A stretch of DNA of 63,975 nucleotides, counting the filler, from Collodictyon triciliatum (lineage: Eukaryota): NCBI GenBank assembly GCA_043381765.1. It is 16 parts of 16 records of this genome, joined end to end, with 100 filler letters (N's around TTAATTAATTAA, not from the genome) between each part and the next. Parts side by side here need not be neighbours in the genome. Positions count along the whole stretch, not along the records: positions 8,019 to 11,927 come from JBHJMP010006727.1; 15 more parts are not named here. One strand, given 5' to 3'. Each line of letters starts with the position of its first letter. Positions within the stretch are counted from its first letter, which is position 1. The translations under genes were made by a program, and so were the position numbers. The notes below the pieces were generated by a model that did not search any database, was not told the origin of the DNA, and saw only the letters and a list, made by a program, of their open reading frames with translations. Of this stretch, positions 490 to 63,975 are shown in pieces.

Positions 490-1343
490 CCAAAGAAAAC
501 CAAAACTCCAATGTTCCAAAGCCTTTACATGCATTTTTCATATGTTTCGTTTATTTTTAAACCCATTAGCGCCTAATTGGCTTAACATGAATCAGCCGAC
601 ATCCCCTTTTTCTTTTTCTTTTCTATCACAAGTTTCGTTTTTCTACCGAAGATATTTATTTATTTAAGGTTTTTTAGGGACTGAATTTTTCAAAGGAATT
701 AATGCAAAAGACTTATTTTTTTTTCCGACAAGCGCATTCACACTGAGGATACGAAAGCCGTGGATGCACAGAGACATTTGTAGTGCGATGCAGCACAAGG
801 ATGATCTGTTTGCCTTCTACGGGGTCGGATTCCACAGCCGCGGAGAAGAACGATGCCGTCCAAGTTTATCGAGGAAGGACGATGGCACGTCGCAGCAGGT
901 CGCGTTCGCCTGTTTTCACAGAGACCCGAACCGGATTCCCACCTTCACCCCAGACAATCGATTGCTGCCGCGCAAAACGCGTGTGCAACTGGACAAAAGT
1001 AAAATGCTGAAAAAGACAACCAGAATAGAAAGTGAGACCCAGGGACAAAAAAAAAAGAAAAGAATTATGTGGGATATACGGAATATAGATCAGACGATCA
1101 AGTAAAAAGAAAGAAAAGAAAAGAATAGACGAAGCGTAGTCCGAGTCACCAGAGTTCCATATGACTTAACCCCCTACATCACACCCATTTTGACTCTACA
1201 TCCCTTTTCATTTCCATTGCAGCCTGTAGGAGGCTGCCTCCGGAGCACAACTTGCAAAGCAGGACACTACCTATCAAAACATCACACCACAAAATAGGCC
1301 AGAATCCGACAGGCAGGGACGATATCCCCACCAACACCATACA

Positions 1344-6317: not shown

Positions 6318-7612
6318 TTCTCAAGCTGTTGTCTCCAGGGTATTGTGCATTGGGACGCACTGGTTCCATATTTCACCTCATACTTTGAGCGAACAACTTC
6401 TGTGAATCAGATCAGCCGTCCCATGGTCCAACGGGACATTCTGTTTCTATTTTGTAAAGTAAAGAACAGAGCCACTCTTTCTTGGAACGAGTTTAAGGAA
6501 CTGTGGTCTTGGTTTACAAAAGTTGCCGATACTTGCCACAAAGTAAGATATTCCTCTTGGCCATGTTGATGGTATTCATCCCATGTTTGAGTTTTATCCA
6601 ACCTAGATTCATTTTCTTCTCTTTTCGTTTATGTGCACAACCTAGCGCCTGGGTGACCGTTGGTTGGCAAAAGTGGAGTAAGTCGGCACCAGTGAATCTT
6701 TATCAAATGCACCGAGCGAATTCAGCCGCATCTGACCCTTGATTCTTATTCATTAGAGGCTGCGACCATTACCTCGTGGATGGGTTTTTGGGGAGGGCAG
6801 AAACAGAGCTTTGTCTGCAAGGCCATCCACCAGGCACCTTCGTGATTCGATTCAGGTGTGAATCCATATTGTGTTTGCTAAGTCCATATGGTGGAGAGGA
6901 CCGCAAGTCACCGCGAGTATCACCCATGTGTAAATCATTCAGCCATACATATTCGATTCACCAACTATATGCGACCTTTAGCGATGGCAAACCCCAGGCG
7001 TTGGTGGCCTCCTTTGTGTCGCAAGACGGTCGTGTTGAGCATAAGCTGATCGAACAGAAGAGCTTTGAGGGAGGCCGCACCTTAGACGATATCATTAACA
7101 TCGACCTTATAGCGTTCTTGCGTTGTAAGATTCCTCCGTTCCTCCAATTATTTTTTTTTTATCTTTTATATATTCGTTCTCCCTTCTCAGGTTTTTTTTT
7201 TTAAAAAAAAAATAACAAGTATCTATCTTATCGTGGAAGGGAGTATCTTTGTCTGGTACCATACATATCATAGGAATAGCTCTATATATTTGGACAATAT
7301 GAGGCTCTCGCCAAAACTATGATTATGATTATTGTCGTTTATATTATTATGGTTATTCTTTGAATCGAATAAAGGGGGAAAAAACATTGGTATCATTATT
7401 CTCAATTAAAAGAAAAAGTAGCATCAATAACCCCTCTCCATTTTTCGTCACCATTGATGCGCCTTGAAAGTAAGAAGGGATGCAGGTCTATGCTTATCTA
7501 ACTGCACCTTTTGCTAGTCCTCCTGACGCCAAACGGCCCGGTACCGGCAATCAACGCTTTCCGGGCGTGCACCAACCAACCAAACAGGCACGGGAATCAA
7601 GGCTACATTTAA
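4113..7612 (+). CDS. STAT-family transcription factor, Dictyostelium-like (DNA-binding domain, linker, SH2, C-terminal tyrosine); 5' truncated
   Basis: Spliced translation: FLSVISQPPPPIVV (start of DNA-binding domain), AVSNPFITITN, WNEFKELWSWF linker, SH2 GFLGRAETELCLQGHPPGTFVIRFSD; last exon 7518-7612 ends HGNQGYI*. Confidence 0.88.
7358..7384 (+). mobile_element. Ultra-short retroposon family B copy, intronic in STAT
   Basis: Exact CTTTGAATCGAATAAAGG followed by a G/A tail; TSD not clear. Confidence 0.65.
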
Positions 7613-7918: not shown

Positions 7919-8159
7919 NNNNNNNNNNNNNNNNNNNNNNNNNNNNNNNNNNNNNNNNNNNNTTAATTAATTAANNNNNNNNNNNNNNNNNNNNNNNNNN
8001 NNNNNNNNNNNNNNNNNNGTTGTTTTTTTTTTTTTTTATAATAAAAAAAAAAAAAAAAAAAATGAGGATAAGATTGAATTCATATTATTAGAGGGGGGGG
8101 GGGGGGGCTGATTTTATAAATGGCCTAATATAGAAACTACGAAAAAAAAAGAGGATAAA

Positions 8160-9587
8160 CCTTTCCATGTTTCAATAGCAGGGAGTATTGCACCAGCCAT
8201 TTCGACAGCAAACAGCCGAGTGCCCATCTATGAAAGTAGATCCAAATTAAATATCAGAATATATACGATATGAACATCAAGGCAAGGGTATAGACACGAT
8301 GTGGTAATGTTTTTTTTTTTTTTGAAAAAAAAAACACCAATACATACTTTTGAATTTCTTCCCATCTTTCGTAAAAATACAGAGTAGCGTTGGTATACAT
8401 TATCCGCATCGATTATTTGCAAGAGCGAATTGACCAATTCAGAAGTGAATGCTCTGTGTTGTGAAAAATATAATGTCATCCTTCAGAAGAAGAAAAAAAA
8501 AGTACTTTGAATCGAATAAAGGGAAAAAAAAAGAAGAAAAAAAAAGTAAACTTGTAAGCAATAAAATAAAATGGAATAACGATTGTTACCACAACCACGT
8601 AATTAATCAATATGAGCAAATAGGTATTCAAATAGTCTATTTCTATACAATCATGAATAACCTCAATTCTGCTCTCTCTGGTGATTTTACGCTGATATGA
8701 TGAATAAGTGCAGTCAACGGTTCAACAAAGTCTTGATTGCCTCCTAGTTTCCTACACAGGCATACATATTTTCTACTTTGAGAGGACACTTACAAAATAA
8801 AATAAAATAAAATAAAATAAAATAAAATAAAATAAAATAAAATAAAATAAAATAAAATAAAACGAAACGAAACATGACAAGACAAGACACAAGAAAATAC
8901 ACAGAAAATTACCTGATCATTTTCAGAGCATTCTGTCGGGATTCATTCAGATCTTTGAACTCATTACTGCTTTTAAAGTTCATAAACACACCAGAAAGTA
9001 ACGCTTTCAAGATGTTTCTCAAAGTTTCCTTAGGTATTCCATGTTTTTCATCCAAAAGACTCTCAAGACACGTATAGCACAGCATACTGACTGTTTCTGG
9101 TGCCGAAAATAGCAAATAATTGGTCAACTTTTAATATAAAATGAATTTTCATGAATAAAGCAAAAAGCCCTGGACTATCTTACTTTCAATACTCTGCCTA
9201 CGCTTGGTTGGTTGCCTATGTCGGTTAATTATACATCAGCATAGATTTATCCTATAATATTTGAAGTATAAATACGAAGCTATACCCATCTTCAGTCTTT
9301 ACCAACGACAGTTCAACCAGTGTATCTATGCATGTCAATACAGAATCTGGATATGCAGATAACGGAAAAGATGCCAGAAGTCCATGTATAGCCACAATCG
9401 ACGAGTCACAAAGCTTCTTGAAAACTTTCGGGTCCTCACTCTGCATTTAATCAATTAATTGATCTTGCGCCAATATATGATGGTTTCATGCAGTTCATTC
9501 ATCTGTTTGATTTTTTCCCTTGAACTTATTTGTAGAAAGAATGAAACAAACTTGGGAGCTTTCGATGTCTTGGTCATCCTGGCCGAT

Positions 9588-9649
<62 letters not shown>

Positions 9650-10989
9650 TCATTAATGGATCCATTTATGAATCAACGAATAGAATGCAAAAGTGTCCAT
9701 TAACCAATATTATATTGTACTATGTTTGAACCCAGGCACGAATTTATGTAAACAAAACTGTGTAAAATTACATATACATCTACACCAATATATACGACAT
9801 AATGCCATAAAAAAGGACAAAAAAAAAAAAACACAGAAGTTGTCAATGTCCATATCCATTAGGTTTGTTTACTTGGCTTTGACTCGTGCTGAAGCTCGAA
9901 CTTAGACTGTCATCCTCATCAGTAGTCGTAGTAGTAGTAGCCTTCCTTTTCTTTCCTTGACTTTTCTTTCTCTTTTTCTTCTCCACTAAATTTGCAAATA
10001 TAAAATAATATATACACGAGACGTATCATAGATTTGTACATCATATAAAGTAAACCTGGTGCTGCGGAATTTCGGAGCACAACACAAAGGTTCTTCAGTG
10101 CTTGTCTGAACATGATTGGATGAAATATCTGGTAGGATACGCTTCCTGGCAAGCGAACAAAATTGATGTATGCACACGCAGAAATGCCGGCTAATCCAGT
10201 ATTTTTATCGTCTTGTAAACATCGATGGAAAAGCAGAAGCACAGCTCTTGACGGAACTCTCTCACAGATGGACTGCAGGTATGGCGTGCAATCTGATTAC
10301 AGAGGAGGGTTTATGTGGGCATAAAACATGCGAGTATTCTTGGGCAATATATTGGACCACTCGTTCTACTCTTTAGAGACATATTGTATTATCAAGGGAG
10401 TTCAAGGATGACACATGCATCTGCTTTGCATTTTTTGATTTATTCTAAAATACGAATTGAAAGAATATAATTTCATCTCATCGTTATGGAGATAAAGGGG
10501 CGCTTTGAACCTTGTGTATGAAGGGAGGCTTCGAGATAATCCGACAGATCCTCAATCCATGGCCGAAGTTCAGAAGCATCAAGACCGAGCATTTGTTTTA
10601 CAGTTTCCCGACCCTCTGCGCTCAGTGATTCTCTGATAAACTATAAACGCATGCAAAACAGTCGATATCAAGAAAAGAAAACAAAGGAAAACAAAGGAAA
10701 ACAAAGGAAAACAAAGGAAAACAAAGGAAAACAAAGGAAACTAGAGAATTTGAGCTTTTTTAAGTAATGAATTTAAATAAATTATATTCAAGAGGAAAAA
10801 AATATGAGTACAGTTGGATGAGGAAAAGACTGTGACGCAACCAATAGAGTCCTATATGTCCTGAATAGAACAGTCATAAAAGCAGGAGGGGATTGTATTC
10901 ACCTCCTCCAACTCAGCAGTGTTGATTGTTGGGAGCGAAAACTGTGAAAACTTCTGGACGATGACTTCTGTATCCTCTGCATCCTCCAT
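8160..10989 (-). CDS. NCAPD3: Condensin II HEAT subunit CAP-D3, N-terminal part (3' truncated)
   Basis: SACAYINFVRLPGSVSYQIFHPIMFRQALKNL resembles the conserved CAP-D3 N-terminal motif (PGS...FHP.MF); ATG at 10989 (MEDAEDTEVI); multiple GT-AG exons. Confidence 0.78.
8505..8530 (+). mobile_element. Ultra-short retroposon family B copy with 18-bp TSD
   Basis: CTTTGAATCGAATAAAGGG(A)n flanked by AAGAAGAAAAAAAAAGTA at 8487-8504 and 8531-8548. Confidence 0.85.
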
Positions 10990-11665
10990 CTTGGATTTGG
11001 TTTCTTATGTGCCTGTGGTATATATGTGTAAGCTTTTTCTGACTTTACGGTCGAAGTGGGCCACTTTCTCACATTTTCGTTAAGCTCTAAGCGGGTAACT
11101 TTAGAAAGAAAACAACTTATTTTTACTCGTTAAGAAAATATTTAGATAACTTCATTGTTCTGAAGCTTCTATGAATGAAAAGTGAAAGTGATTCGTGCTG
11201 CTCTGGGCGGGTTGATTCTTGTGTGATAACTCTGCAGCGGACTCGAAGATCGAGCAGTGTAAGAGAGCAATAAAAGTAACGAGCTGGAAGACAGCAGTAT
11301 TTTAGGTGGTACTGCCATCACAGCACATGGTCATGCATAACGACCGGGGCAGTGGAAGTCGTCTTCTAGTGTTGAGACTGAGTTCTGCTGGGTTGCCAAC
11401 GCACGGTTTTGGAAGATCACAGACGCAAGTGTGAATTGTTTTCTGGCGGTTTATAAAGGCAGACTTCACAATAGAGAGAACGACCCCGAGAGAGGGTGAG
11501 ACGAACAGCGTGTAGGTCTTCGTAGTCGCTATACAGCATGAGGTGCTGGCATGGGATTCACGCAATTACAAAACATCCAAGTTTTTCTGTCTGTTGGAGA
11601 TCACTAAAAGGAAGAAAAATAAAATATTATTATATACGTTCAGCTTCTCACATAAGTAAGCAAAA

Positions 11666-11747
11666 GACACTGTGGCCGAGTGGTTAAGGCGACAGACTCG
11701 AAATCTGTTGGGTTCTGCCCGCGCAGGTTCAAATCCTGCCAGTGTCG
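11666..11747 (+). tRNA. tRNA-Ser, anticodon CGA
   Basis: GACACTG/CAGTGTC acceptor stem, TGGCCGAGTGG A-box, ACAGA-CTCGAAA-TCTGT anticodon arm, long variable arm, GGTTCAAATCC T-arm, T-run just downstream. Confidence 0.97.
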
Positions 11748-12095
11748 GTTGTTTTTGGCCTATTGGCGTCCTTGTTGGATATATATTTTTTTTGTCGCTT
11801 TCGCAATCATGCTTCTGCTGCTCCTCCTTTGCTGCCCAGGCCAGAACGCAAAAAGATGGTGGGATTTCATTCAGTTATAACCACCTTATAGAGCATATAT
11901 AACTTTTTTAAATGAAAACAAATGATTNNNNNNNNNNNNNNNNNNNNNNNNNNNNNNNNNNNNNNNNNNNNTTAATTAATTAANNNNNNNNNNNNNNNNN
12001 NNNNNNNNNNNNNNNNNNNNNNNNNNNATATATGGTATGAATGCAGGGAAATAAGTTATCGGTCAGTCCTCGAGAAATAGAAAAAGGACGTAAAG

Positions 12096-16035: not shown

Positions 16036-16153
16036 TGTATGTATGTATGTATGTATGTATGTATGTATGTATGTATGTATGTATGTATGTATGTATGTAT
16101 GTATGTATGTATGTATGTATGTATGTATGTATGTATGTATGTATGTATATATG

Positions 16154-16187
<34 letters not shown>

Positions 16188-16224
16188 TGTATGTATGTAT
16201 GTATGTATGTATGTATGTATGTAT
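16036..16224. repeat. (TGTA)n microsatellite; representative of many others, e.g. (TTA)n, (GT)n, (CAAA)n, (TCTA)n, (GAGT)n, often at scaffold ends
   Basis: Direct inspection. Confidence 0.97.
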
Positions 16225-16603
16225 GGCTATGTTGCGAGAAGCCCTTTCATCTTAATACTCTGGTTGCACCCACACAATTTGTCGAGATTCAAATATGGTT
16301 CCAGGGGTATTACCTGAACCACACATCACGGCCGATAGCCGGTGGACACTCTGAACGTACGGCAATAATTTTTTCTTTTTGTGTGGTTGCCATTTCTCTT
16401 TGCCTCGTGCACTATCTTGTCCTCCAAAGTATGTGAGCTGGCAAACACTTCTTATGTACATAAAGCAAAAACTATATAACAAAACAAAAAACAAAAAACG
16501 AAAAAAAACATAAACAAACAGCAGTCCAGAATCGAAGATGTATTCGTGAGGCTAACTTCTTCCACTTACGAATCGACTCTTGTTGACCTAAGCCGGCCCA
16601 GAG

Positions 16604-20445: not shown

Positions 20446-22310
20446 TCACTTTTGGAAAAAGTATAGGGGGCGGCTGAATCCTTCGCTAGTCTCACTTTTT
20501 GTTTGCACAATCCTTGCAGGTTGAAAACCGATATCTTGTTGGAGATACTCTCCAAACATATCTGGCTTCAGCTTGATTTCCTTCATCGTTTTCTTCATAT
20601 TCTATTGACAGAGACAGAGTCGGTGAAAATAAAGCCGTAAATCCAGTGTATTTTCTCCTAGGGGGTTCCCTGTTTCCTTTGTTGAGAGATGCGGAAAAGT
20701 GTCATTTCTGATTTCAAACTTACTGGAGTCATGTTCCCTTTCTTTTCGTAAGACTTCCACAGCTGGGGTTCCAGTACTAGAACTCCTCCTTTGTTTAGCG
20801 AGGCGTACATTTTTCGAAACAATCGCTTAAGTCCAATATCTCCCCAATTAAGATGTACCCATTTTGTTAGACTTAAACTATACATGAAAATATCAAATAA
20901 TTAGCGATAGATTAAAAGAAAAAATAAAAGAGTCATTAAAGTGGGTGAGGAAACAATCATTTAATACTGTTATAAGAATATAAACGAAAATCTTAATTTT
21001 AATGGAAAAATAAGAGAAAAAAAGGGAGTTAAGGGCGCGGGTGACATCTTAATTAAGAGCGTCCAATATTTACCAGAGAATGACATCGAATTTCTGGTCT
21101 GGTTCTTCCACTTCAACAAAATTCCCGTGTCGGAATAACACGTTGTGTGGAAACCGACTGAACTTTGATGATAACGGTTCAGATGAGGCACCCGAAGCTC
21201 CATCGCATGCAACATTAGATGGCGTAGAGCCAACCATGGGAACGGATTTTATCAAGGAAAACTTTTCCAACACCTCTCTTGGAATCGGACCAAATGTCAA
21301 GGCGAAGGAGATAGGAAACTCATCATACGACTTTGCCAAGTCAGAGACTTTCAGTGTCTGCAAGAAGCGTCGCGCCCGAGCGATCAGCTTATCGTCAATG
21401 TCCAACCCAAGCATCGATTTGCATCTGAATTTGTGGGCTGCATTTTTTTAATGGATGTATATTCAGTTGCTAATACTATATGGTAACTATGTTGATTGAT
21501 ACAGTAGTGGCGGTGATTCGAAGTATAAATATGAAATATATATAAAAAGAAACAAAAACATACAAAGTAATATAAAATCTTTGAATCGAATAAAGGAAAA
21601 AATAAACTAATATAAAATAAGTGCCTTTTTTCTTTCCCTTAATTTAGTAATAAGTTTAAAAGAAAATATTTTAGCATATTGGAAGGTAGTAGCTAAAAGA
21701 GTGAATTTGTATATTCATCTTGTCATCACCAATTGCCAAAGTAAGGCGACCATCATTGCAGCCTATGTCTAACACATCTTTTCCTTCCAACATACTCGAA
21801 TCAAGATACTATATCACATGCAGTTTAAATGCAACCAATCAGTTGGGTGGAATAGAAATAACATTTGGCACAAATATCTGTATGTCTGTTCTTTTCATCC
21901 CTTCATTACGGGGAACGAATGGCACAATAAGCATGACAACAGACCTGAAGGCGAGGGTCTTCAGAGTCTGGCTTGTTTCTATAGTTGTAATAGCCGGGAT
22001 AGTTTCCGTACTGATATAAAGGTTTCTTGTGCGGCTTTTGAGGGTCCTGGACTGAACCGTCTTCTTGACGATCGACCATGGAGGCGTCCAACTGGAGGGA
22101 CAGATTTCCTCTCCGCCCTTTCTGCTTCATTCTTTTAAAGTCTCGGGTTGGTCGCGAACCTCTGTGATCCTGAAAGTCCCTGTGAAGTGGCTTCGCACTC
22201 GCACCCAGGGATCGTTCTGCCTTGGCTTCCTCCTTCTGTTGTGTGGATTCGTCACAGGCGTCAGAGTCGCGCTTCCTTTTTGTGACTGGAGCCCCATCAG
22301 ACGCGTCCAT
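20446..22310 (-). CDS. MEPCE: Bin3/MePCE-type RNA methylphosphate capping methyltransferase
   Basis: YQYGNYPGYYNYR...DPRL, VLDIGCNDG, LGLDIDDKLI, LSLTKWVHLNWGD.GL, LVLEPQ.WKSY, GFSRPLYLFQK*. Confidence 0.93.
21579..21603 (+). mobile_element. Ultra-short retroposon family B copy, intronic in MePCE
   Basis: Exact 18-mer plus A-tail; TSD AAA(G/C)TAATATAAAAT at 21564-21578 and 21604-21618 (14/15 match). Confidence 0.82.
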
Positions 22311-23947: not shown

Positions 23948-24308
23948 GTATGTGGACAGCGNNNNNNNNNNNNNNNNNNNNNNNNNNNNNNNNNNNNNNN
24001 NNNNNTTAATTAATTAANNNNNNNNNNNNNNNNNNNNNNNNNNNNNNNNNNNNNNNNNNNNCAAACAAACAAACAAACAAACAAACAAACAAACAAACAA
24101 ACAAACAAACAAACAAACAAACAAACAAACAAACAAACAAGCAAACAAACAAACAAACAAGCAAACAAACAAACAAACAAGCAAACAAACAAACAAACAA
24201 ACAAACAAACAAACAAACAAACAAACAAACAAACAAACAAACAAAAACCCATGTTGCGCTAATACTTAAAAGTGGGGCTTGCCTTTAGTTTAATTACAAA
24301 GGCGGGTC

Positions 24309-26277: not shown

Positions 26278-26376
26278 TATAGGAAGCTATGAATAACTAT
26301 CGAAGGGGGTTGTCGTTAAATGGAGTGAAACATCGGCTTGCGACAATAAATAATGTCAATCAGTTTATTGAAGGAT

Positions 26377-26413
26377 TTTTTTCTCCTTTATTCGATTCAA
26401 AGTGTAGCGAGGT
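26377..26413 (-). mobile_element. Retroposon family B copy (37 bp) with perfect 15-bp TSD
   Basis: Minus strand reads ACCTCGCTACACTTTGAATCGAATAAAGGAG(A)n; AGTTTATTGAAGGAT at 26362-26376 and 26414-26428. Confidence 0.9.
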
Positions 26414-27636
26414 AGTTTATTGAAGGATAATACTTTTATACTGTAATATAACTATTTACTGTCGAAGCACAATAATATGCCACAAGTTACCAATTAACAG
26501 AGGCAGTGAAGTGCCCTTTCTGTTTACCTGCTTCTCATTACCTGCTCCATATATCCTTTAATTTCTGTACTTTCTCAGTTTGCAAACAACACTTTCTTGT
26601 GGTTTTTTAAAAGAAAAAATTCATAAAAAAATCCTATAATTTAGACAACATTCATATCATAAATCGGTCGCTGGCTAATGCGCGTCTGCAAGATAGAAAA
26701 TAGTCTTGTGATACTACTGATAATGAAATATAATCAGAAGGATATGCATGCCCTTTTTTTTTTCTTTTCATGAGCAGTATGTCCAGTATATTTTCACATG
26801 CGAAAAGCCCACCCAAAGGCGAACGCAGCATTTCATTTGACTTATTGCAGATAAATCAACACAGAGTCTATTGCATCAGATTGAGACACAACACCCTTTT
26901 GCGCCTTACAGGCATAAATGAGCTACTGCACTAGTAGTAATACCCATTCGATACTTTCTTTCTCTTTTTTCCTCTTCTTTCTCATCCGCCTCTGCCTTTC
27001 TGTTCTTCCTTTTTCTTCAATGAACAACCTTCAATCGGGAAAAAGGGCGGAGCTGAGCAAAAACAAGACGAAAAAAAAAAAAACCCCCCCCGCAAGCGAT
27101 AACAAAGTAGTATGAAGCCACTCACACAAGCTGTTTTTTTTTTTTTTTTTTTTTACTGACTGCTGTCACAGCCCCAACGCCACCAAGTAGTCTCGGGCTG
27201 AGTCCAAACTTTCTCTTTGCACATCAAACAAACAAGCACTTTGCCCGATGACGTTTCGTGCGGCGATTGACGTCACTATCTGATGTCACAACAAACAAGG
27301 ACACCCAGAAATCAGCCTCACTCCCACCACACGGAAGAAGCAAACAAGAGGAATACTTACTACCGAGGCCACCAAACGACGAACAATACGCGCAACTGAG
27401 TCGGAGACGAAGCACGGACACACGCTCTGGTTATGCTTGCGAGCGTCGCTACAAAACCAAAGACGGGCCTCCTCAGAACAAGGCCTCTCAGTGTCAACCC
27501 ATGCTTCCTCCCACGTTATCCCTGCCGTATTATAAAGTCGACTAGCGTCGTTATACTCGGCAATCTTTTTGTGCTGTTATGACTCACCAACACATGAGTT
27601 GCTGACCGCAATCACAATAGTTCTTTTGGAACACGC

Positions 27637-30700: not shown

Positions 30701-31494
30701 CTTACAAAACCCAACACAAAGCAAAGGCTTATGCTATAACCTTGCTTTTTTTTTACTTTACAAAGGTATACATGATATTATTGGATATTCTGTAAAAATA
30801 AGAACTTATTAGATCACTGCTACGAATTTTTTTTTTGTAAGTTACTGATCTCACACTGTCGTTGAGGTCTATGTGGCACATTAATTTTTTCCGTTTATAT
30901 TTTGTTAAAAGAAAGTGTTTTATTATGATTCTACAGCCCGCCATAGTTGTTGCACCTTGGTTGAAAGCACGAGCGCGTTTTGGATTCACATGCAGGTCGG
31001 TGTAATATAGAAACAAAAATTAAGACTCATCTAAATATATCTATGTGGGTCGAGCTTCATACAATCCTTAAAAACTGTAAATACCAAGGGCCCTGACCTA
31101 AATTCAATCCGAGGCCTAACTTCCGGCAAAGTCCAAGTGTCGCGACTGATTTAAATCAGACAATGAATGGGTAACCAGTAGACGCAACATGTGAAAGTCG
31201 CTAATTTTATCTAAAAAAAAGAACTTTCCATTTGGATATAATGCTGTATTTGATTTTTTTGTATTATTGTTTGATTTTGAATGCCTTTTGCCCGTGCTAA
31301 ATATATGTATATGAACTATGCTGACGCACTACAACTCAGTTCCTGAGTAACCTCATTCCACCATTTGATGCAAAGCTCTGTTTAAGTGCATCGTTCAAAG
31401 AATCTATCGCGTTCGATTAATTTATTTGATCCACGAAGCCGAAGTCAAAGCCAATGTACTTTGCTAATAAACCCATCTTACTGGGCCATTCTTT

Positions 31495-31969
31495 GCTATT
31501 TTTATTTTGTTTATTTTTATTTGCGTGTGGACATGAAGTTCCTGTCTCCAAGGTGCCAGCCTTCTTTGGCATGGACGCTATTTGGTGGCCGGTTGGCGGA
31601 GAAGTAGTCGGTAATCAGGAATTGCATCCTGCGGTTTGGCCTGTAACCTGGGTTTTGTGCTTCCATGAGGAGATACAAGACGAGGTTTAATATCTTTCTC
31701 AGCTTCTTTCCACGTGTCTCTTCTCACAGGGTCTGAGTAGTAGAGAACGTGCAGGTGGTGAAGAAAGCTGTTGAGGAAAGAGATTTGTATGATGTCATTC
31801 AGCCTGTTATTAGGAATGGGTGGCTGGTTGTTGAATCTTACTTTGCGTGATTATATGCATGCTATCCACATAGTCCATAGCAAATGGCCTCACATTACTG
31901 CCCAGAAATGTTTTTGCATCTGGATGCAGCTGTTGCAGAGGCCCAAATATCGCCTGGATTGGGCCAACA
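31495..31969 (-). mobile_element. LINE family A 3' end (degenerate ORF2 C-terminus plus A-rich tail)
   Basis: Minus-strand HFWAVM*GHLLWTMWIA motif typical of L1/Tx1 ORF2 ends; shares CAGGATGCAATTCCTGAT...CTACTTCTCCGCCA with 44763-44932; A-rich tail. Confidence 0.75.
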
Positions 31970-43745: not shown

Positions 43746-44762
43746 TATGATTATTTTGGGTCAATCAGGGCTTTTCTATTTGATCCACTCATGCCTCGAG
43801 CATCACTTTAGATAACGCACTCAATCTTAGTCCTTTTTTTTCATATGATTCGTTTGTTGCAGGTCGTCATAAATTAATTGTATGTATGTATGTATGTATG
43901 TATGTATGTATGTATGTATGTATGTATGTATGTATGTATGTATGTATGTATGTATGTATGTATGTATGTATGTATNNNNNNNNNNNNNNNNNNNNNNNNN
44001 NNNNNNNNNNNNNNNNNNNTTAATTAATTAANNNNNNNNNNNNNNNNNNNNNNNNNNNNNNNNNNNNNNNNNNNNTCCTCTTCCTCTTCCTCTTCCTCTT
44101 CCTCTTCCTCTTCCTCTTCCTCTTCCTCTTCCTCTTCCTCTTCCTCTTCCTCTTCCTCTTCCTCTTCCTCTTTTGTTTGACTTTGATTTCGGATATTATC
44201 ACCGAAGTGTTCCACTTTAATTTTTAGGATGTGGTAAAGCAACTCTGTGGAAATGCTATAGCTAAGTAACTTAATGCCCAATTGCCTTTTGTTTGGAACT
44301 GAAAGTTCTGAATTCCACCAAATTCATAATTGTATGTTTTATAAAAACCATGATTTTTATGCGGAGAAAACGAATACACTCAAACTGGAAAACTATGTTC
44401 AATAAACATATTGACTATCTTCCTAAGCGCGCCCTCATTCAGTGCTATTTTGACTGGAAACAGAGAGCTTCGGAAAATCGTTGCAATATGTCTCCCATCT
44501 CGTTTCAACCCTTGCTACACATGAAATCAATCAAGAAGCTCTGTTCCCTGTCTGACTGACTCACCATTATTTTCCACCCAGAGACACTATCACATTGGTC
44601 GTTTTGCCCGTGTCAGCTTCGCATCATGCGCACTTTTTTCGGTCCCTAAAATTGCTCAATCTTCTGAACTTATAATCGAGGATTATTTAGTTCAAAATAA
44701 TATATGAGTTGCGTCTTTTTAGCCCATATTGAGTAAAAAAAATTGTTTATGCAAGCAAAACA

Positions 44763-44932
44763 GGCAAGCACAAGACCCGCTACAGGCCAAACCACAGGAT
44801 GCAATTCCTGATAACTGGCTACTTCTCCGCCACCCGGCCACCAAGAAGCATCCATGCAAACGATGTCTAGCAAACCAAAGCCAACACCTCCGCCATCCTG
44901 CACAAAATTGAAAGGAAGAATGATAAAAAAAA
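44763..44932 (+). mobile_element. 5'-truncated LINE family A copy with poly(A) and 14-bp TSD
   Basis: TSD ATGCAAGCAAAACA at 44749-44762 and 44933-44946; similar to about 31570-31660 (minus) and 55222-55293. Confidence 0.88.
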
Positions 44933-45002
44933 ATGCAAGCAAAACATAGCAACATCAATAATAGGGATGATATGATATAGAATATAATCCCATAATGTCT
45001 AA

Positions 45003-45136
45003 CCTTTTTTTTTCCTTTATTCAATTCAAATTGCAGCGGGGTTATGCCATACAAATTGGCGGGATGGGAGTGCATGGTAGAGAACAAACACGAGTAGGAG
45101 AAGACACTACCGTGGAGAGGCTAGCACTGGAAAGAA
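45003..45136 (-). mobile_element. Longest retroposon family B copy (134 bp) with 14-bp TSD
   Basis: TSD CCCATAATGTCTAA at 44989-45002 and 45137-45150; 3' end ACCCCGCTGCAATTTGAATTGAATAAAGG(A)n matches the 26377 copy. Confidence 0.85.
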
Positions 45137-48100
45137 CCCATAATGTCTAATCTTCATCCAAATCATAGTCGAAACCTAGTAGAGCCTCAAACCAAAGAAC
45201 TTTCGTTACTCAAGAATTAATGCAATCGCTGATACGTCAATCAAAATTGGATGTCTGATACCTAAATTATGACTATTTCGTTTACTCGCATTAATGCATA
45301 CTTTTGAGGAACTGAAAGGGAATAATGAATGAAAAACATATGCCCTTTGGAAGAAAATTTTCGAGTATTCGATTCATTTGTGGGTGAAGCGCACAAAACC
45401 ATCCATTAAGGCCCCTCGCACGGCAATGTCTTACCTTAATAAAATGATAGCATGATCTTTATTGAATTTTTTCTGATAAATAAATTCGAAACGACTGTAT
45501 TTCATGCGAGAGCAAAATTTGTAGCACTTTCGGGGACATTTTCCTTTCTTTTCTGTAGGCTCTGCACGATGATATTTTCAGAAGTGGGGTGTGAGCACTT
45601 ACGAGAGAGAAAAAAAAAACATACTTGATACAATCAGAAGTATCTTCATATGAGCAAAAATTGCAGGATTCGGTGTTTCGAATGGCGTACAAAACTTAAT
45701 GAGATTAAATCTTGGTATAAATTACGGTTGGAAAAGAACGCATATATGAGCTCTTTGGAATCACCAGAGGCCGCACAAGCTACAAGCCGGTGGGTGAGGA
45801 GATTTGATTTTTATTATTACGTATCCCTGTCACGGTAAGACATATATTGTGGAATTTAAAATGCGTATCGTTTTTGTTACATGTCGCCAAATTTATGAGC
45901 AAGCTTTATAAACTAGTCATTGTTGAGACACAAATACCAAAATTGTAGAGGATTGATGGATACATTTCTGTTGTTCATATAAATATTGTAGCTTCTGAAA
46001 CTATTTGACCTTTCTAGCAACCAGCTTTTGTCGCTATGATGGTTCCATTGACTTCATAGATAGTGAGTAAAAGTATCATGTTACTGCGAGAAGCATCGCA
46101 CATGGCTGGACTTCCTGGTCTTCATATTGATAGCAATTAGGTGTAACTCCATTTTATTTTTTTGTAAGGGAAATAAGCTTGCCAAGATGCGTACAGGTAG
46201 AGGAGCTTATACTGCAAATCACAGTGCTAACGAATTTGGAAACATTCCTTGCAGTCGACAACGACGGCTAAGTGAACGTAACATGAGCCCCACGAGGCCT
46301 TTCAAACCTTTCATGCTATAGCGATGAGACTTCTTGGATAAGGCATAGTACAAATGGCAGTGCCCCCAAAATTCGGAGCTCTATGACCCTGCAAGCGACG
46401 TGATCACTCATAATCTTTCTCGCGCTATAATTATCGAACACTTCCAGCACATTTCCTACATGTTGGAACTGTAGCAGAAACCCGTAAGACTGGAGAGTTA
46501 TGAAGAGCTGCTAACCCAGGTAGTAACTATACTCACTGCGCCTTGGGCAGTTTTTGATGATACCACCGAAGTCCCAGTCCCCCGAGAAATAAATAAATAA
46601 AAAAAAACCTAGTACCCAGGCTACTATCTCGCGATAAGTTGGCACATACTTCGAGCACAGACCTCGACATGTGAGGGACATTGATGGGCAAGAGCAACTC
46701 TGGGCTGTTCTACAATATTTAGTCGAGGAATGAACCTGCTCCGAAGGTTGCTAATAACAATTAATACCTGAAACTTACAATCCTTGCTATGGATACTTCT
46801 GTAAATTTTGCAAGCTCAAGCAATACTCGTATTAGATTATATACATCACCCATAATCTGCGATTATATTTTCTTCTAAAAAATGAAAGCGATGAATCTCA
46901 GTAAATACGCAAGTATCGTAACTTCATTTGGGTTCTGTGACCATAAAATCGACGATGATATTAAATAGCAGGCCTGACAAACATGTGAGAAGCCGCCAGC
47001 GCGAAGCTTTGAACCAAAAAAAATGAGAATATTTTGGGTCTAAAAGGAGAATATTCACACATGTACCGCCAGAAAAAAAACGAAAAACTACAGAGTTAAA
47101 GCTATTCACATCCTTAGTGACTTTGCGCATCAGATACAATTAAAAGGCATGATCATTTGTGGAATATAATATAAACTTCAAAACATTCTGCGATACTATT
47201 AAAAAAAATGTTTGCAAGAATAAAACCAATATAATTATAGTCCATCAATTCATTCACAATCAATTTGCGTGGGTTCTCTGTAAAGCACATATAAAACAAA
47301 TATTCCAAAAGCGAAGCACCACTTTATTTGTATCATTCAACGGATATGGATCCAAATAAATACTTATTCAATGAATTATTCAAAACTTGAGCCTAATTTA
47401 TCTATGCAGAAAATTTTACATATAAAGGGTTTTACATGGAAGAATAAAGACCTCAAACACGGGGCAGAATTCTATCGAATCACCTGGCCTCCAAAGAATC
47501 GCGCCTGTGCAAATGAAACATCCACGAGCAACCACCGACACCCGGCGATGGGGCTCAGGCTTCCGTTGCGTAAAACCTCCGAGGTACCACCTGACTAAAA
47601 GTGTGTCAAAAACGCCTGCGAAAGACACTAGAGACTAGCCCAGATGAAGCAAAGTAACAATATTTTTTTTTATTCTAAAAGTCTTAGCTGTTGAGCCCGT
47701 CTCAACAATCTTTCATTCAACCATCAGGCAAGTAGTTCCAAAGTAGATGGGGATGTGTGGGAGATAGAAAAAGAAAAACAGGGATAAAGGGGAAAAAAAC
47801 GGAAAAGAGAGGTCCTTGAGGCTTGATAAGAGACGCATGGATTTCTTTTGGGGACGCGTGATAGTGTCCCGCGAGCATGAAAAAAAAAAAGGGACGGGTG
47901 ATATTGATTGGATGGAGGAGGGGGAATACTGCTTTGATGGCGCAAGCTGTCGAAAAGGATGGTGAAAAGAGAAGTGANNNNNNNNNNNNNNNNNNNNNNN
48001 NNNNNNNNNNNNNNNNNNNNNTTAATTAATTAANNNNNNNNNNNNNNNNNNNNNNNNNNNNNNNNNNNNNNNNNNNNAAAAAAAAAAAAAACAAAAACAA

Positions 48101-59978: not shown

Positions 59979-60129
59979 NNNNNNNNNNNNNNNNNNNNNN
60001 NNNNNNNNNNNNNNNNNNNNNNTTAATTAATTAANNNNNNNNNNNNNNNNNNNNNNNNNNNNNNNNNNNNNNNNNNNNTATTATTATTTATTATTATTAT
60101 TTATTATTATTATTTATTATTATTATTTA

Positions 60130-60210
<81 letters not shown>

Positions 60211-60908
60211 TATTATTATTTATTATTATTTATTATTATTATTTATTATTATTATTTATTATTATTATTTATTATTATTATTTATTATTATTATTTTGAA
60301 AGACTTGTGATTTGCATATTGATACAGCGTCATGATAGTCAAATGTTTCCATTATTTAGAAAACACGAAGTCACTATCTCTGGTTATTTCAAAAAAATAC
60401 TAATGAATGAATGAATGAATAGTCTACGGCGATCACATGGCGTACCCATCATACTTGATCACCTATCGTCACTAGCAAGCTGGGAAGGACACCCCACCAT
60501 GCATTGTGATATCAAGAAGAAAAAAAAAACGACGCTGATATACAGACACCTGCGTATCAGATTGCATAAAAATGAAGAAAAAGAAAAGCGTGCACAGTTC
60601 TCTGTTTGACCGGCTGCACGGGTATGCCACAAGGAAAAGGTCGTCGAAGACACTAATGATTCTTGTGAATTTTTTTTCATCGCCCTCTCCATTTTTGACT
60701 TTTCGCTTTCTTTTTGTTTTCTTTTTGTTTTCTTTTTGCTTTCTTTTTGTTTTCTTTTTGTTTTCTTTTTGTTTTCTTTTTGTTTTCTTTTTGTTTTCTT
60801 TTTGTTTTCTTTTTGCTTTCTTTTTGCTTTTTGTTTCTTTGCTGTGTATGTGTGTGTGTGTGTTTTCTTGTTTATGTTTATTACTAGGGCGAGCACGCTG
60901 GCAGCGAG

Positions 60909-63617
60909 CTATGACTTGCGCCTCTGGGGCTTGGCTGCGTCCCTGGACGTCTTCGAGAAGCTGCCTTGCCTTGGTTTCGGGCTGTGGGGTTTTCCGCCTA
61001 CGGCGTTTCGCGCTGATTTCTTTGCCACGCCAGATAGGGTCTGTTTCAGCTTTGTTGCTGGGAACCCTGTCTTGGCTGCAGTCTTCCCGTATGTAGAGTC
61101 CGGCTTGGATGGGGTGAATCTGCTGTTTGGGGTTGGCTTCCTTCCTTGCTTGAAGGATGTGCTTGTGTTTGTGCTTGTGCTTGTGCTTGTGCTTGTGCTT
61201 GTGCTTGTGCTTGTGCTTGTGCTTGTGCTTGTATTTTTGCTTGGTATCGATTGCGAAGCAGATGATTTCGGCGTCATCCGGTAATACTTTGGCCTTCTTG
61301 GAAGTCGCGATTCTGGCGCTTTAGGTTTTGTCTGGAGTTGCTTCTCTAACGTGTCGATGGGTATGGGCGAAGCCTTCATCAAGGAATCAAGCGGTCTGTT
61401 CTGCTCGTTGAATCTCTAGGCGATTTTTAAGTAATACGTCGTCAGAGAGTATTGTCTGCAATGATTGTTTGCTTGGATGAGTCTGGTACCTTGATTGTAT
61501 CAGCCAGGGCAGTTTCTTGCTTGGTGACAAAGGAAACGGCGTGGCCGATGTTTCCTGCTCTGGCAACTCTTCCAATACGATGAATGTAATCCACTGTTGA
61601 TTTGGGAAAGTCAAAGAGAATTGCACCGTATATCTAGGGCAAGTTTGTTAATAAATAGGATTATGCTTTGATTTGAATAAAGGGGGAGGGGGAAAAATGA
61701 ATGGGGTTATGCTAGATTGTACAAAAGGAATATATGATATCCCGTTTGATTTAAGGCAATACACTTACATCAGGTATATCCAATCCCCGAGAGGCAATAT
61801 CCGTGCAGACTAGGATGTTTGTCGTCCCATCGGAAAATGCTTTGAGTGAGATTTTCCTCAACTATTAACATTAGAAAATCGGTTTGGGATACTCAGTATT
61901 CAAAAAAAAAAAAAAAGTACATCTTAAAGAGGAGAGCAAAGAAAAGGACCAGGGGCATGTCTAAATTTTCGTCTTTAAGAAGGAAAAAAAAAAAAAAAAA
62001 AAAAAACAGCGGGGTACCTTCATAGGCATATCTCCGTACATGCCTATAGTGGGGTATTTACTTTCTTCAAGAAAATAACATGTTGATTGAGCACTCGGTA
62101 TAGTATTACAGAAGATAATTACTTTCTTATCTTTGAATTTTTCCATCCAGAACAAAAGCTCATCTATTGTTGTGGAATAAATACGTGAATTGATGAGGAG
62201 ACATACTTGAGTGAGTGTTTGGTTGATAGTATTATAAATAAATAAATCTTAATTCCTTTATGCTTCGTCTTCAGGACGTAGGCTGTTGGAATATAAATAT
62301 CTAACCATGCTTCTTGTTAGGAAGGACAGGAATAAATTTTTGATTAAGCGTAGCAACTGGTCGATGCAGCATATCACTTTTGATGATTTCTACGTTCTAT
62401 AATTGAAATTAAGCACGGGAGCATGAATTTAAAAAAATGCATGTAACATACCAGCGATTAAAAAAATTGTAAATGTATATATTGACACAGGAACATAATG
62501 TGTGAACTATAAATCACTGGAATGTAACGAAATAATTGACACAAATTATTGAGTAGAAATGACTCACTGGGAATGAATTCTTTACATAATCTGTTACTTT
62601 ACTAATTAGAGTGGCAGTAACATATACGACTTGAATTCTTTTTGGATCTTCACTAACGATGAGCTATTCATAATACTTCAGGTGAATGAAATTCAAAGAT
62701 AGGTATTCGACTAAAACTAGAGAAACAAAACCTCTTGAGAAGAAATGATGGGATATGTTAAAGTATTCCACCTTTAGTATGTCAGTAATTTTGTTTAGTT
62801 CGTATTCATAGCCCTCAGATGTTTGAAATTCGGCTTCATCCACGACTATATATTTTAAGTCCGAGAAGAATAATCTTCCTATAAGGAAAGATATTATTAA
62901 AATACGTATAACCATGTCGTTCCAGTATTCATATAGTCAAATAAAAGAAATCGCCAGTTTTATCAATTGAATAATATTAAAGGGTATATGTACTCTTTTC
63001 ATGTAGTCTCAAGAGTTTTGCTGTTGTTCCAAAGATGATATCGGCTGTGGGTATATCGATAGAGTCGATTGCCAAGTCATTTCTTCTCCCAAAGGCAGTT
63101 CCGATAGTTAAGTTTGTAAAAGAAGACATTTTCTTTGCTTCTGTCTGTGACAAAATTTCAAAATAGTTTATATGTATCCTTTTATCACAAGAGGATGATT
63201 TATTCTTGCAATAGATAAAGTTATTTGAGATGAAAACACTAAACTTACGTACGCTTGTTGGCATAAGTATAGATTAGGCACAATTACAAGTCCTTTAGGT
63301 CGATAGGGACGTCTTGGGCTTTCGTCAGCAACCATGGCGAGTTGATTGAGTATAGGTAAGCTATATGCGAGGGTTTTTCCACTTCCTACATTGCGATTTT
63401 TATGAGATAAACCTACCATAGTTCATCCTCATGTGAAAAACTTTGAACCGAATAAGGAATGAGTGGGTCAACTCCTCAATGAGAAAATAAATATTACAAA
63501 GCATCTATTGTACATAAGAGCGGTTTATCTGAAATGATAATCAGGAAAAGAACCTGTTTCTGCTGCTATAATCGCATTTTGTCCTTGTAATAGACGTGGT
63601 ATGCTAAGTTTCTGTAT
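60909..63617 (-). CDS. DEAD-box RNA helicase, DDX28/RH39-like (5' truncated)
   Basis: IQKLSIP...[49 protein letters not shown]; basic low-complexity tail. Confidence 0.9.
61666..61695 (+). mobile_element. Older family B copy, intronic, with a decayed TSD
   Basis: CTTTGATTTGAATAAAGG plus purine tail; flanks AATAAATAGGATTATG / AATGAATGGGGTTATG (13/16). Confidence 0.65.
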
Positions 63618-63975
63618 ACATTTGATTAAAAAGTAGTAGCGTCGTATGTTTTGGCAGAATTGATTGGATTTATCAATGTAAAAACAGACGTAATATCCCG
63701 GTGGAATAATATATTTTAAAAAGAAAGAAACGACCGCAATAAGTGTCATCAGATATTCGACTTACTTTTTTTCTTCTTTTTCAAAAAAAAAAAAAAACAG
63801 AGAGGGAGAGAGAAGACAGAGAGAGAGAGAGAGAAGACAGAGAGAGAGAGAGAGAAGACAGAGAGAGAGAGAAGACAGAGAGTGAGTGAGTGAGTGAGTG
63901 AGTGAGTGAGTGAGTGAGTGAGTGAGTGAGTGAGTGAGTGAGTGAGTGAGTGAGTGAGTGAGTGAGTGAGTGAGT

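Follow-up and report, generated by a model that had tools for sequence, protein, structure and literature searches.

Very short A-tailed inserts with a recurring 5′ edge in Collodictyon triciliatum are probably 5′-truncated tails of an L1-like LINE

The DNA analyzed in this study, hereafter the window, is a stretch of 63,975 nucleotides from Collodictyon triciliatum (assembly GCA_043381765.1). It consists of 16 pieces of approximately 3.9 kb each, which are separated by spacers of the form N44-TTAATTAATTAA-N44; internal runs of N occur inside two of the 16 pieces. Microsatellite and minisatellite arrays lie at many piece ends (for example 1-489, 16036-16225, 24062-24245, 43879-43975 and 60079-60296) and probably account for the breaks in the assembly. 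LRR, NHL, RING, bZIP and sulfotransferase domains are encoded in the window, a repertoire that looks like that of an animal. On the third scaffold, a minus-strand gene is defined by a spliced X1 contig, which connects 8453 with 8662 across CT..AC ends, and by eight further CT..AC joints and one TT..AC joint. A tRNA-Ser(CGA) gene is located at 11666-11747 (+), and many metagenome contigs match this scaffold only there, with 90-95% identity. Two freshwater-metagenome runs (X3 and X5) each contain one contig that matches the window with zero differences, at 9258-9481 and 10567-10706. Because these matches are free of differences, intronic parts included, they suggest a freshwater habitat for the organism.

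The subject of this study is an 18-mer, CTTTGAATCGAATAAAGG, which harbors the polyadenylation signal AATAAA. Searching the window identified exact copies at 7358 (+), 8505 (+), 21579 (+) and 26385 (-), copies with two mismatches at 45014 (-) and 61666 (+), and a copy with three mismatches at 63441 (+). An earlier note on this DNA had listed the same seven sites on six scaffolds, and the list holds: across the whole window, seven matches were found at three or fewer mismatches compared with 0.13 expected, none of 100 shuffled sequences attained seven, and the copies are spread over six of the 16 pieces, which corresponds to seven copies per 61 kb. The A or purine tail that the note had reported behind the motif is likewise present as an A or G/A tail of 8-12 nt in six of the seven copies, the copy at 63441 being the one without a tail. 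When the flanks of the copies were compared within the window, no mutual similarity was observed except for microsatellites; therefore, the insertions are independent. The copies and their target-site duplications (TSDs) are as follows.

8487 to 8504, plus strand: left TSD of the micro-insert at 8505, AAGAAGAAAAAAAAAGTA, identical to 8531-8548 at 18 of 18 positions and ending at CTTTG.
8505 to 8530, plus strand: micro-insert of 26 nt in total, consisting of the exact 18-mer (8505-8522) and a G/A tail (8523-8530).
8531 to 8548, plus strand: right TSD of the same micro-insert, the 18/18 repeat.
21568 to 21618, plus strand: micro-insert at 21579 with its TSDs, namely TSD TAATATAAAAT (21568-21578), exact 18-mer (21579-21596), tail AAAAAATAAAC (21597-21607) and TSD (21608-21618); the TSD adjoins CTTTG and is exact over 11 nt, or 14/15 with one mismatch if extended.
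26362 to 26428, minus strand: insert of 37 nt (26377-26413) between copies of the 15-nt exact TSD ATCCTTCAATAAACT (26414-26428 and 26362-26376); it contains 11 nt of probable LINE 3′UTR, ACCTCGCTACA, then the 18-mer, then the tail AGAAAAAA, and the TSD thus lies 11 nt upstream of CTTTG.
44989 to 45150, minus strand: insert of 134 nt (45003-45136) with the 14-nt exact TSD TTAGACATTATGGG, 105 nt upstream of CTTTG; it contains the probable last codons of a LINE ORF2 (..FFPVLASPR, then stop), a 3′UTR of approximately 95 nt, the 18-mer with two mismatches and an A9 tail.
61650 to 61711, plus strand: older insert, with the 18-mer at two mismatches (61666-61683), a G-rich tail (61684-61695) and, beside CTTTG, a degenerate TSD (61650-61665 and 61696-61711) that matches at only 13 of 16 positions and is weak, 6.6% of random positions doing equally well.
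7358 to 7384, plus strand: exact 18-mer with the tail GGGAAAAAA; although the motif is exact, no TSD was found in the flanks, and the LINE homology ends at CTTTG.
63441 to 63458, plus strand: decayed copy matching at 15 of 18 positions, with only a gapped 13/15 repeat and without an A tail; its membership in the family is doubtful.

The copies were described in the earlier note as mostly intronic, and an intronic position is shown for two of the seven and likely for a third. According to the X1 joint, the insert at 8505 lies inside an intron of 208 nt (8454-8661) and is antisense to the gene. An empty-site comparison with X1, X2, X3 and X5 contigs over 8019-11927 yielded no DNA contig that covers this intron. 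The copy at 61666 separates two consecutive Helicase_C exon pieces, 61442-61633 (-) and 61751-61861 (-), in a minus-strand DEAD-box gene and is therefore intronic and antisense as well. For the copy at 63441, which is flanked by the DEAD exon of the same gene at 63168-63422 (-) and by an upstream open frame at 63525-63761 (-) and is likewise antisense to the gene, an intronic position is likely.

To be accepted as products of retroposition, the copies should be flanked by direct repeats more often than the AT-rich background, and the earlier note had proposed this comparison. Our control counted exact repeats of at least 11 nt shared by the 160 nt ahead of an 18-nt site and the 20 nt that follow it, and it was applied to 5000 random window positions, tandem repeats included. 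Exact TSDs of this length flank four of the seven copies compared with 157 of the 5000 random positions (3.1%; binomial P = 3e-5). The note had counted direct repeats at five copies; four of these are exact over 11-18 bp, but the fifth, at 61666, is the weak repeat described above. A blind scan of the window for A-tailed, TSD-flanked inserts of 70 nt or less produced 17 raw hits, of which 14 fall inside two tandem arrays; two of the three sites left outside the arrays belong to the 18-mer family, and the reversed-sequence control produced no sites outside arrays. The third is a 48-nt A-tailed segment at 1053-1126 (+) with the 13-nt direct repeat AAAAGAAAAGAAT on either side, which may be either a micro-retrocopy of unrelated origin or a chance product of low-complexity sequence. 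With regard to a nick-site preference of the TT/AAAA type, the TSDs mostly begin with A, and the five sites yield no consensus.

The source of the 18-mer was sought by scanning metagenome contigs, in which 35 loci were identified. One of them, L008, has an A10 tail and reads ...CTCGCTACA-18-mer-A10; the other 34 are tail-less, occur in unrelated contexts and were taken as chance matches rather than as copies of the family. In alignments, the upstream part of L008 is 92.4% identical to the copy at 45014 over 132 nt, and L008 is 97.4% identical to the copy at 26385 over 38 nt. L008 carries at least 418 nt of element sequence, including the final 107 aa of an ORF that terminates approximately 95 nt upstream of the tail, again with FFPVLASPR, and the copy at 45014 starts within the last codons of this ORF. 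In three copies (26385, 45014 and L008), the 18-mer is therefore contiguous with a LINE 3′UTR. The genome-contig and viral-contig collections contained no match to the 18-mer followed by RRAAAA and none to a 24-mer from the LINE ORF end.

The identity of the ORF was examined through its relatives. The 107-aa fragment alone has no Pfam match, but its peptide matches two metagenome proteins, P0001 and P0002 (E = 1e-19 and 7e-17; 46-50% identity), and P0002 bears the domain PF13966 zf-RVT (34.1 bits against a cut-off of 27.5). A word search of P0002 against longer proteins found none, whereas an exhaustive search identified 16 related representatives, with 31% identity to P0002 for distant relatives. 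All four of the long relatives (1226-1339 aa) contain Exo_endo_phos, RVT_1 and zf-RVT. For the protein P0010, the closest solved relative is human LINE-1 ORF2p (E = 3.4e-57), and R2 proteins score approximately 1e-23. The endonuclease and reverse transcriptase (RT) domains of the element, which we call family A, are known from distant relatives only, the family A ORF in hand being the last 107 aa. On this chain of homology, the 18-mer is very probably the final 18 nt of the 3′UTR of a poly(A)-tailed, L1-like LINE. Extension of the long copies, which the earlier note had suggested, thus led to the 3′UTR end of a LINE: because 26385, 45014 and L008 run upstream into a shared 3′UTR and ORF end, the micro-inserts would be extreme 5′-truncated LINE copies, and by homology the source is a LINE rather than a separate tiny element. 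The inserts, which had been described as a micro-retroposon family, are better named the shortest class of 5′-truncated LINE copies. A processed pseudogene of a cellular mRNA does not fit, since the upstream sequence runs into the end of the LINE ORF2.

Other LINE debris was observed in the window. A C-terminal ORF2 fragment of a second LINE family is present at 31587-31907 (-), ends in ..ITDYFSANRPPNS.. and has 34-40% amino acid identity to P0001 and P0002; its A-rich tail lies at approximately 31490-31530, and the fragment runs off the scaffold end. A second copy of this family, 5′-truncated to 170 nt, with the 14-nt TSD ATGCAAGCAAAACA and an A9 tail, is located at 44749-44946 (+), approximately 60 nt from the family A insert at 45003-45136 and on the opposite strand. 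A third LINE-like fragment at 44364-44567 (+) is 63% identical to the coding part of L008 over 211 nt, with an A8 run at approximately 44738-44745. Therefore, three LINE-tail insertions are clustered within approximately 800 nt. In addition, contigs from X1 and X2, which are 94-97% similar to the gene on the third scaffold, depart from it at 10102 into ...CCTGCACAAAATTGAAAG, a second-family LINE tail, and a paralogue or allele of this gene seems to carry a LINE-tail insertion in its transcribed sequence. The terminal modules of LINE families A and B and a third fragment have a mean column identity of 59%, a weak value that is dominated by the A-rich end and was not taken as evidence.

In the family A copies, an A tail, TSDs of variable sequence and length, and variable 5′ ends are all present, as expected from the signature of target-primed reverse transcription that the earlier note had recognized. 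The copies arose by staggered cuts of the target and A-tailed insertion, their template being an RNA whose end lies in the LINE 3′UTR, and we infer that the family A ORF2 protein made them via target-primed reverse transcription. The ORF2 protein would nick the target, prime on the poly(A) tail and reverse-transcribe from the 3′ end, and most events would halt early, leaving 5′-truncated copies between TSDs of 11-18 bp. The shortest class would then consist of the terminal 18 nt and a tail of 8-12 nt.

What distinguishes the shortest class is its 5′ edge. Three of the five TSD-defined inserts (8505, 21579 and 61666) begin exactly at the C of CTTTG, and the LINE homology ends at this C in 8505, 21579, 61666, 7358 and 63441 (alignment A1). 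The element-derived parts of the five TSD-defined inserts are 18, 18, 18, 29 and 123 nt long. Under a fitted memoryless (geometric) model of truncation, the probability that at least three of five copies stop at the first position is 6.6e-4, a value computed post hoc from five TSD-defined copies in 61 kb of small scaffolds. The claim that the three short TSD-defined copies share the CTTTG start is thus borne out, with the qualification that the third, 61666, is defined by its weak TSD, and we take the edge as real in the present sample of five. The parent reads ...GCTACA ahead of CTTTG, and the last three bases of the TSDs are GTA, AAT and ATG; therefore, junction microhomology is at most 1 nt at the three exact junctions, none of which contains filler bases. 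Because the tail lengths vary, the stop is set by sequence and not by the distance from the priming site.

Could ordinary, unpatterned 5′ truncation produce this edge? The motif was defined from the shortest copies, and the shared CTTTG could be a small-sample coincidence, in which case the inserts would form a family of LINE tails truncated in the ordinary way. This explanation draws on the small number of TSD-defined copies and the post hoc nature of the test, on the longer copies (+11 nt, +105 nt and +400 nt or more), which show that truncation points vary, and on the loose description of possible hotspots for L1-mobilized SVA elements (PMC10681720). Against it stands the probability obtained under the geometric model. 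Under higher stop rates, copies of 7-17 nt should outnumber those with the full 18-mer 2- to 50-fold. The 7-mer ATAAAGG has 16 sites in the window, six of which belong to family members that retain the complete 18-mer; among the other ten, an A run is present only at 47784, where the flanks are of low complexity. Therefore, there is no crowd of copies shorter than the 18-mer, and together with the copy extended by 105 nt, the missing copies of 7-17 nt exclude a pile-up caused by high stop rates. We regard a coincidence of ordinary truncation as unlikely, and the stop at ACA/CUUUG appears to be non-random.

RNA structure does not explain the edge. The earlier note had associated it with a hairpin, CUUUG-AAUCGAA-UAAAG, but folding does not support this proposal: the 26-nt insert RNA has a minimum free energy (MFE) of 0 kcal/mol (z = +0.84), and each of the 200 shuffled sequences folds at least equally well. 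LINE 3′ ends of 61 nt and 108 nt (z = -0.02 and +0.65, respectively) are no more structured than their shuffles, and folding revealed no stable conserved 3′-terminal recognition hairpin of the type found in stringent LINEs. A search of the LINE end of L008 for ribozyme and RNA families returned four weak matches only (E = 3.3-6.7), far under the gathering scores.

Two routes to a fixed edge may be considered. In the first, the template would be a 3′-terminal piece of RNA whose 5′ end is discrete, and RT would run off this piece before jumping across to the upstream end of the target; the piece could be a 3′ cleavage product ending at ACA/CUUUG, made for example by small-RNA-guided slicing or by a nuclease that trims the RNA back as far as the bound ORF2 protein. 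In the second, RT would be let go early at a fixed template position. We lean slightly toward run-off on a discrete-ended fragment because the three junctions are exact, filler-free and have microhomology of at most 1 nt; early release at a fixed position is about as likely. Template jumping and end joining are discussed as mechanisms for the attachment of L1 5′ ends, and a jump is proposed for R2 and L1 (PMC2912911). Tentatively, then, the terminal 18 nt of the LINE together with poly(A) may be defined by a discrete template or by a fixed RT checkpoint and may be retroposed repeatedly as a unit of approximately 26 bp.

A micro-SINE would also create a common 5′ end. In this explanation, the inserts derive from their own RNA of approximately 18 nt plus poly(A), either a separate transcription unit or a stable processed product, which shares the LINE tail and is mobilized in trans. 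Three identical exact 5′ ends with TSDs, two more copies whose homology ends at this base, the clean junctions and the lack of tail copies of 7-17 nt in the ATAAAGG search all agree with such a source, although seven copies are a small sample. However, 18 nt is too short for any known pol III internal promoter. No promoter head of the tRNA, 7SL or 5S type was detected in the 18-nt unit, which has no significant Rfam match; at gathering scores, Rfam identified one genuine tRNA-Ser in the whole window and nothing at the 18-mer family, and the LINE end of L008 likewise belongs to no Rfam family. Moreover, because the 18-mer is contiguous with the LINE 3′UTR in three copies, a separate source gene is unnecessary. 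We consider a micro-SINE rather improbable, and we retain the terminal segment of the LINE itself as the preferred source. It is scarcely credible that the inserts arose without retroposition, as a conserved regulatory or terminator motif or as templated DNA-repair or filler insertions: AATAAA within the motif and the lack of a TSD at 7358 would fit, but TSDs variable in sequence and length at four of the seven copies, the A tails and the continuity with the LINE ORF end and 3′UTR do not, and a host-gene poly(A) signal would be senseless in copies that lie antisense in introns.

In kind, the system is a known one, an L1-like LINE family with 5′-truncated copies; the shortness of the inserts and their exact common 5′ end are unusual. 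Like the "dead on arrival" copies of the L1 clade, the inserts have poly(A), AATAAA at the 3′ extreme, TSDs of 11-18 bp and variable 5′ ends, and the element shares the zf-RVT-type ORF2 C-terminus; its distant full-length relatives have the layout of APE endonuclease and RT and best match human L1 ORF2p. They differ from L1-clade copies in that the inserts of 26-30 nt scarcely exceed their TSDs, three to five of the seven copies share one end base, and the exact CTTTG junctions lack microhomology beyond 1 nt. Some SINEs carry a 3′ tail taken from a partner LINE, as eel UnaSINE1 does from UnaL2; SINEs have a pol III promoter head and a length of approximately 100-500 nt. The present inserts resemble tail-borrowing SINEs in being short non-coding units with a LINE 3′ end, presumably copied by LINE RT; however, they are headless, and a structured 3′ recognition stem is unsupported by folding.

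Three further comparisons may be drawn. Platy-1, which is described as the shortest primate SINE at approximately 100 bp (PMC4864456), is also a very small retroposon moved by L1-type machinery, but it is about four times longer and a full-length unit of its own, whereas the present inserts are a LINE sub-fragment. In human SVA elements, "potential" 5′-truncation hotspots occur hundreds of nucleotides from the tail (PMC10681720); these are likewise L1-driven, non-uniform truncation points, but the preferred end in family A is only 18 nt from the tail. Twister variants in Schistosoma provide ribozyme-defined RNA ends in non-LTR elements (PMC8501958), and such ribozyme-ended elements would yield a discrete template end, although the family A 3′ end matches no ribozyme family. 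The 18-mer motif and its reverse complement are absent from the searchable literature. Among the titles found in searches on very short insertions and truncation hotspots, none reported recurrent LINE-tail inserts of approximately 26 bp, which does not prove that such a report is lacking.

To our knowledge, inserts of 26-30 bp fall under the reporting size of repeat finders. If the density observed here holds genome-wide, a sizeable class of intronic LINE-derived insertions would be unannotated and would be misread as unique sequence or as indels. If the sharp stop is real, it would mark either a place where the LINE RNA is cleaved or the position at which RT has to release the bound 3′ end, and we know of no L1-like element outside mammals in which either has been mapped. 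If the terminal 18 nt are indeed set by a discrete template or an RT checkpoint, they would constitute, with their tail, the smallest recurrent retroposon unit described, which would be present perhaps about once per 10 kb genome-wide and would be invisible to standard annotation.
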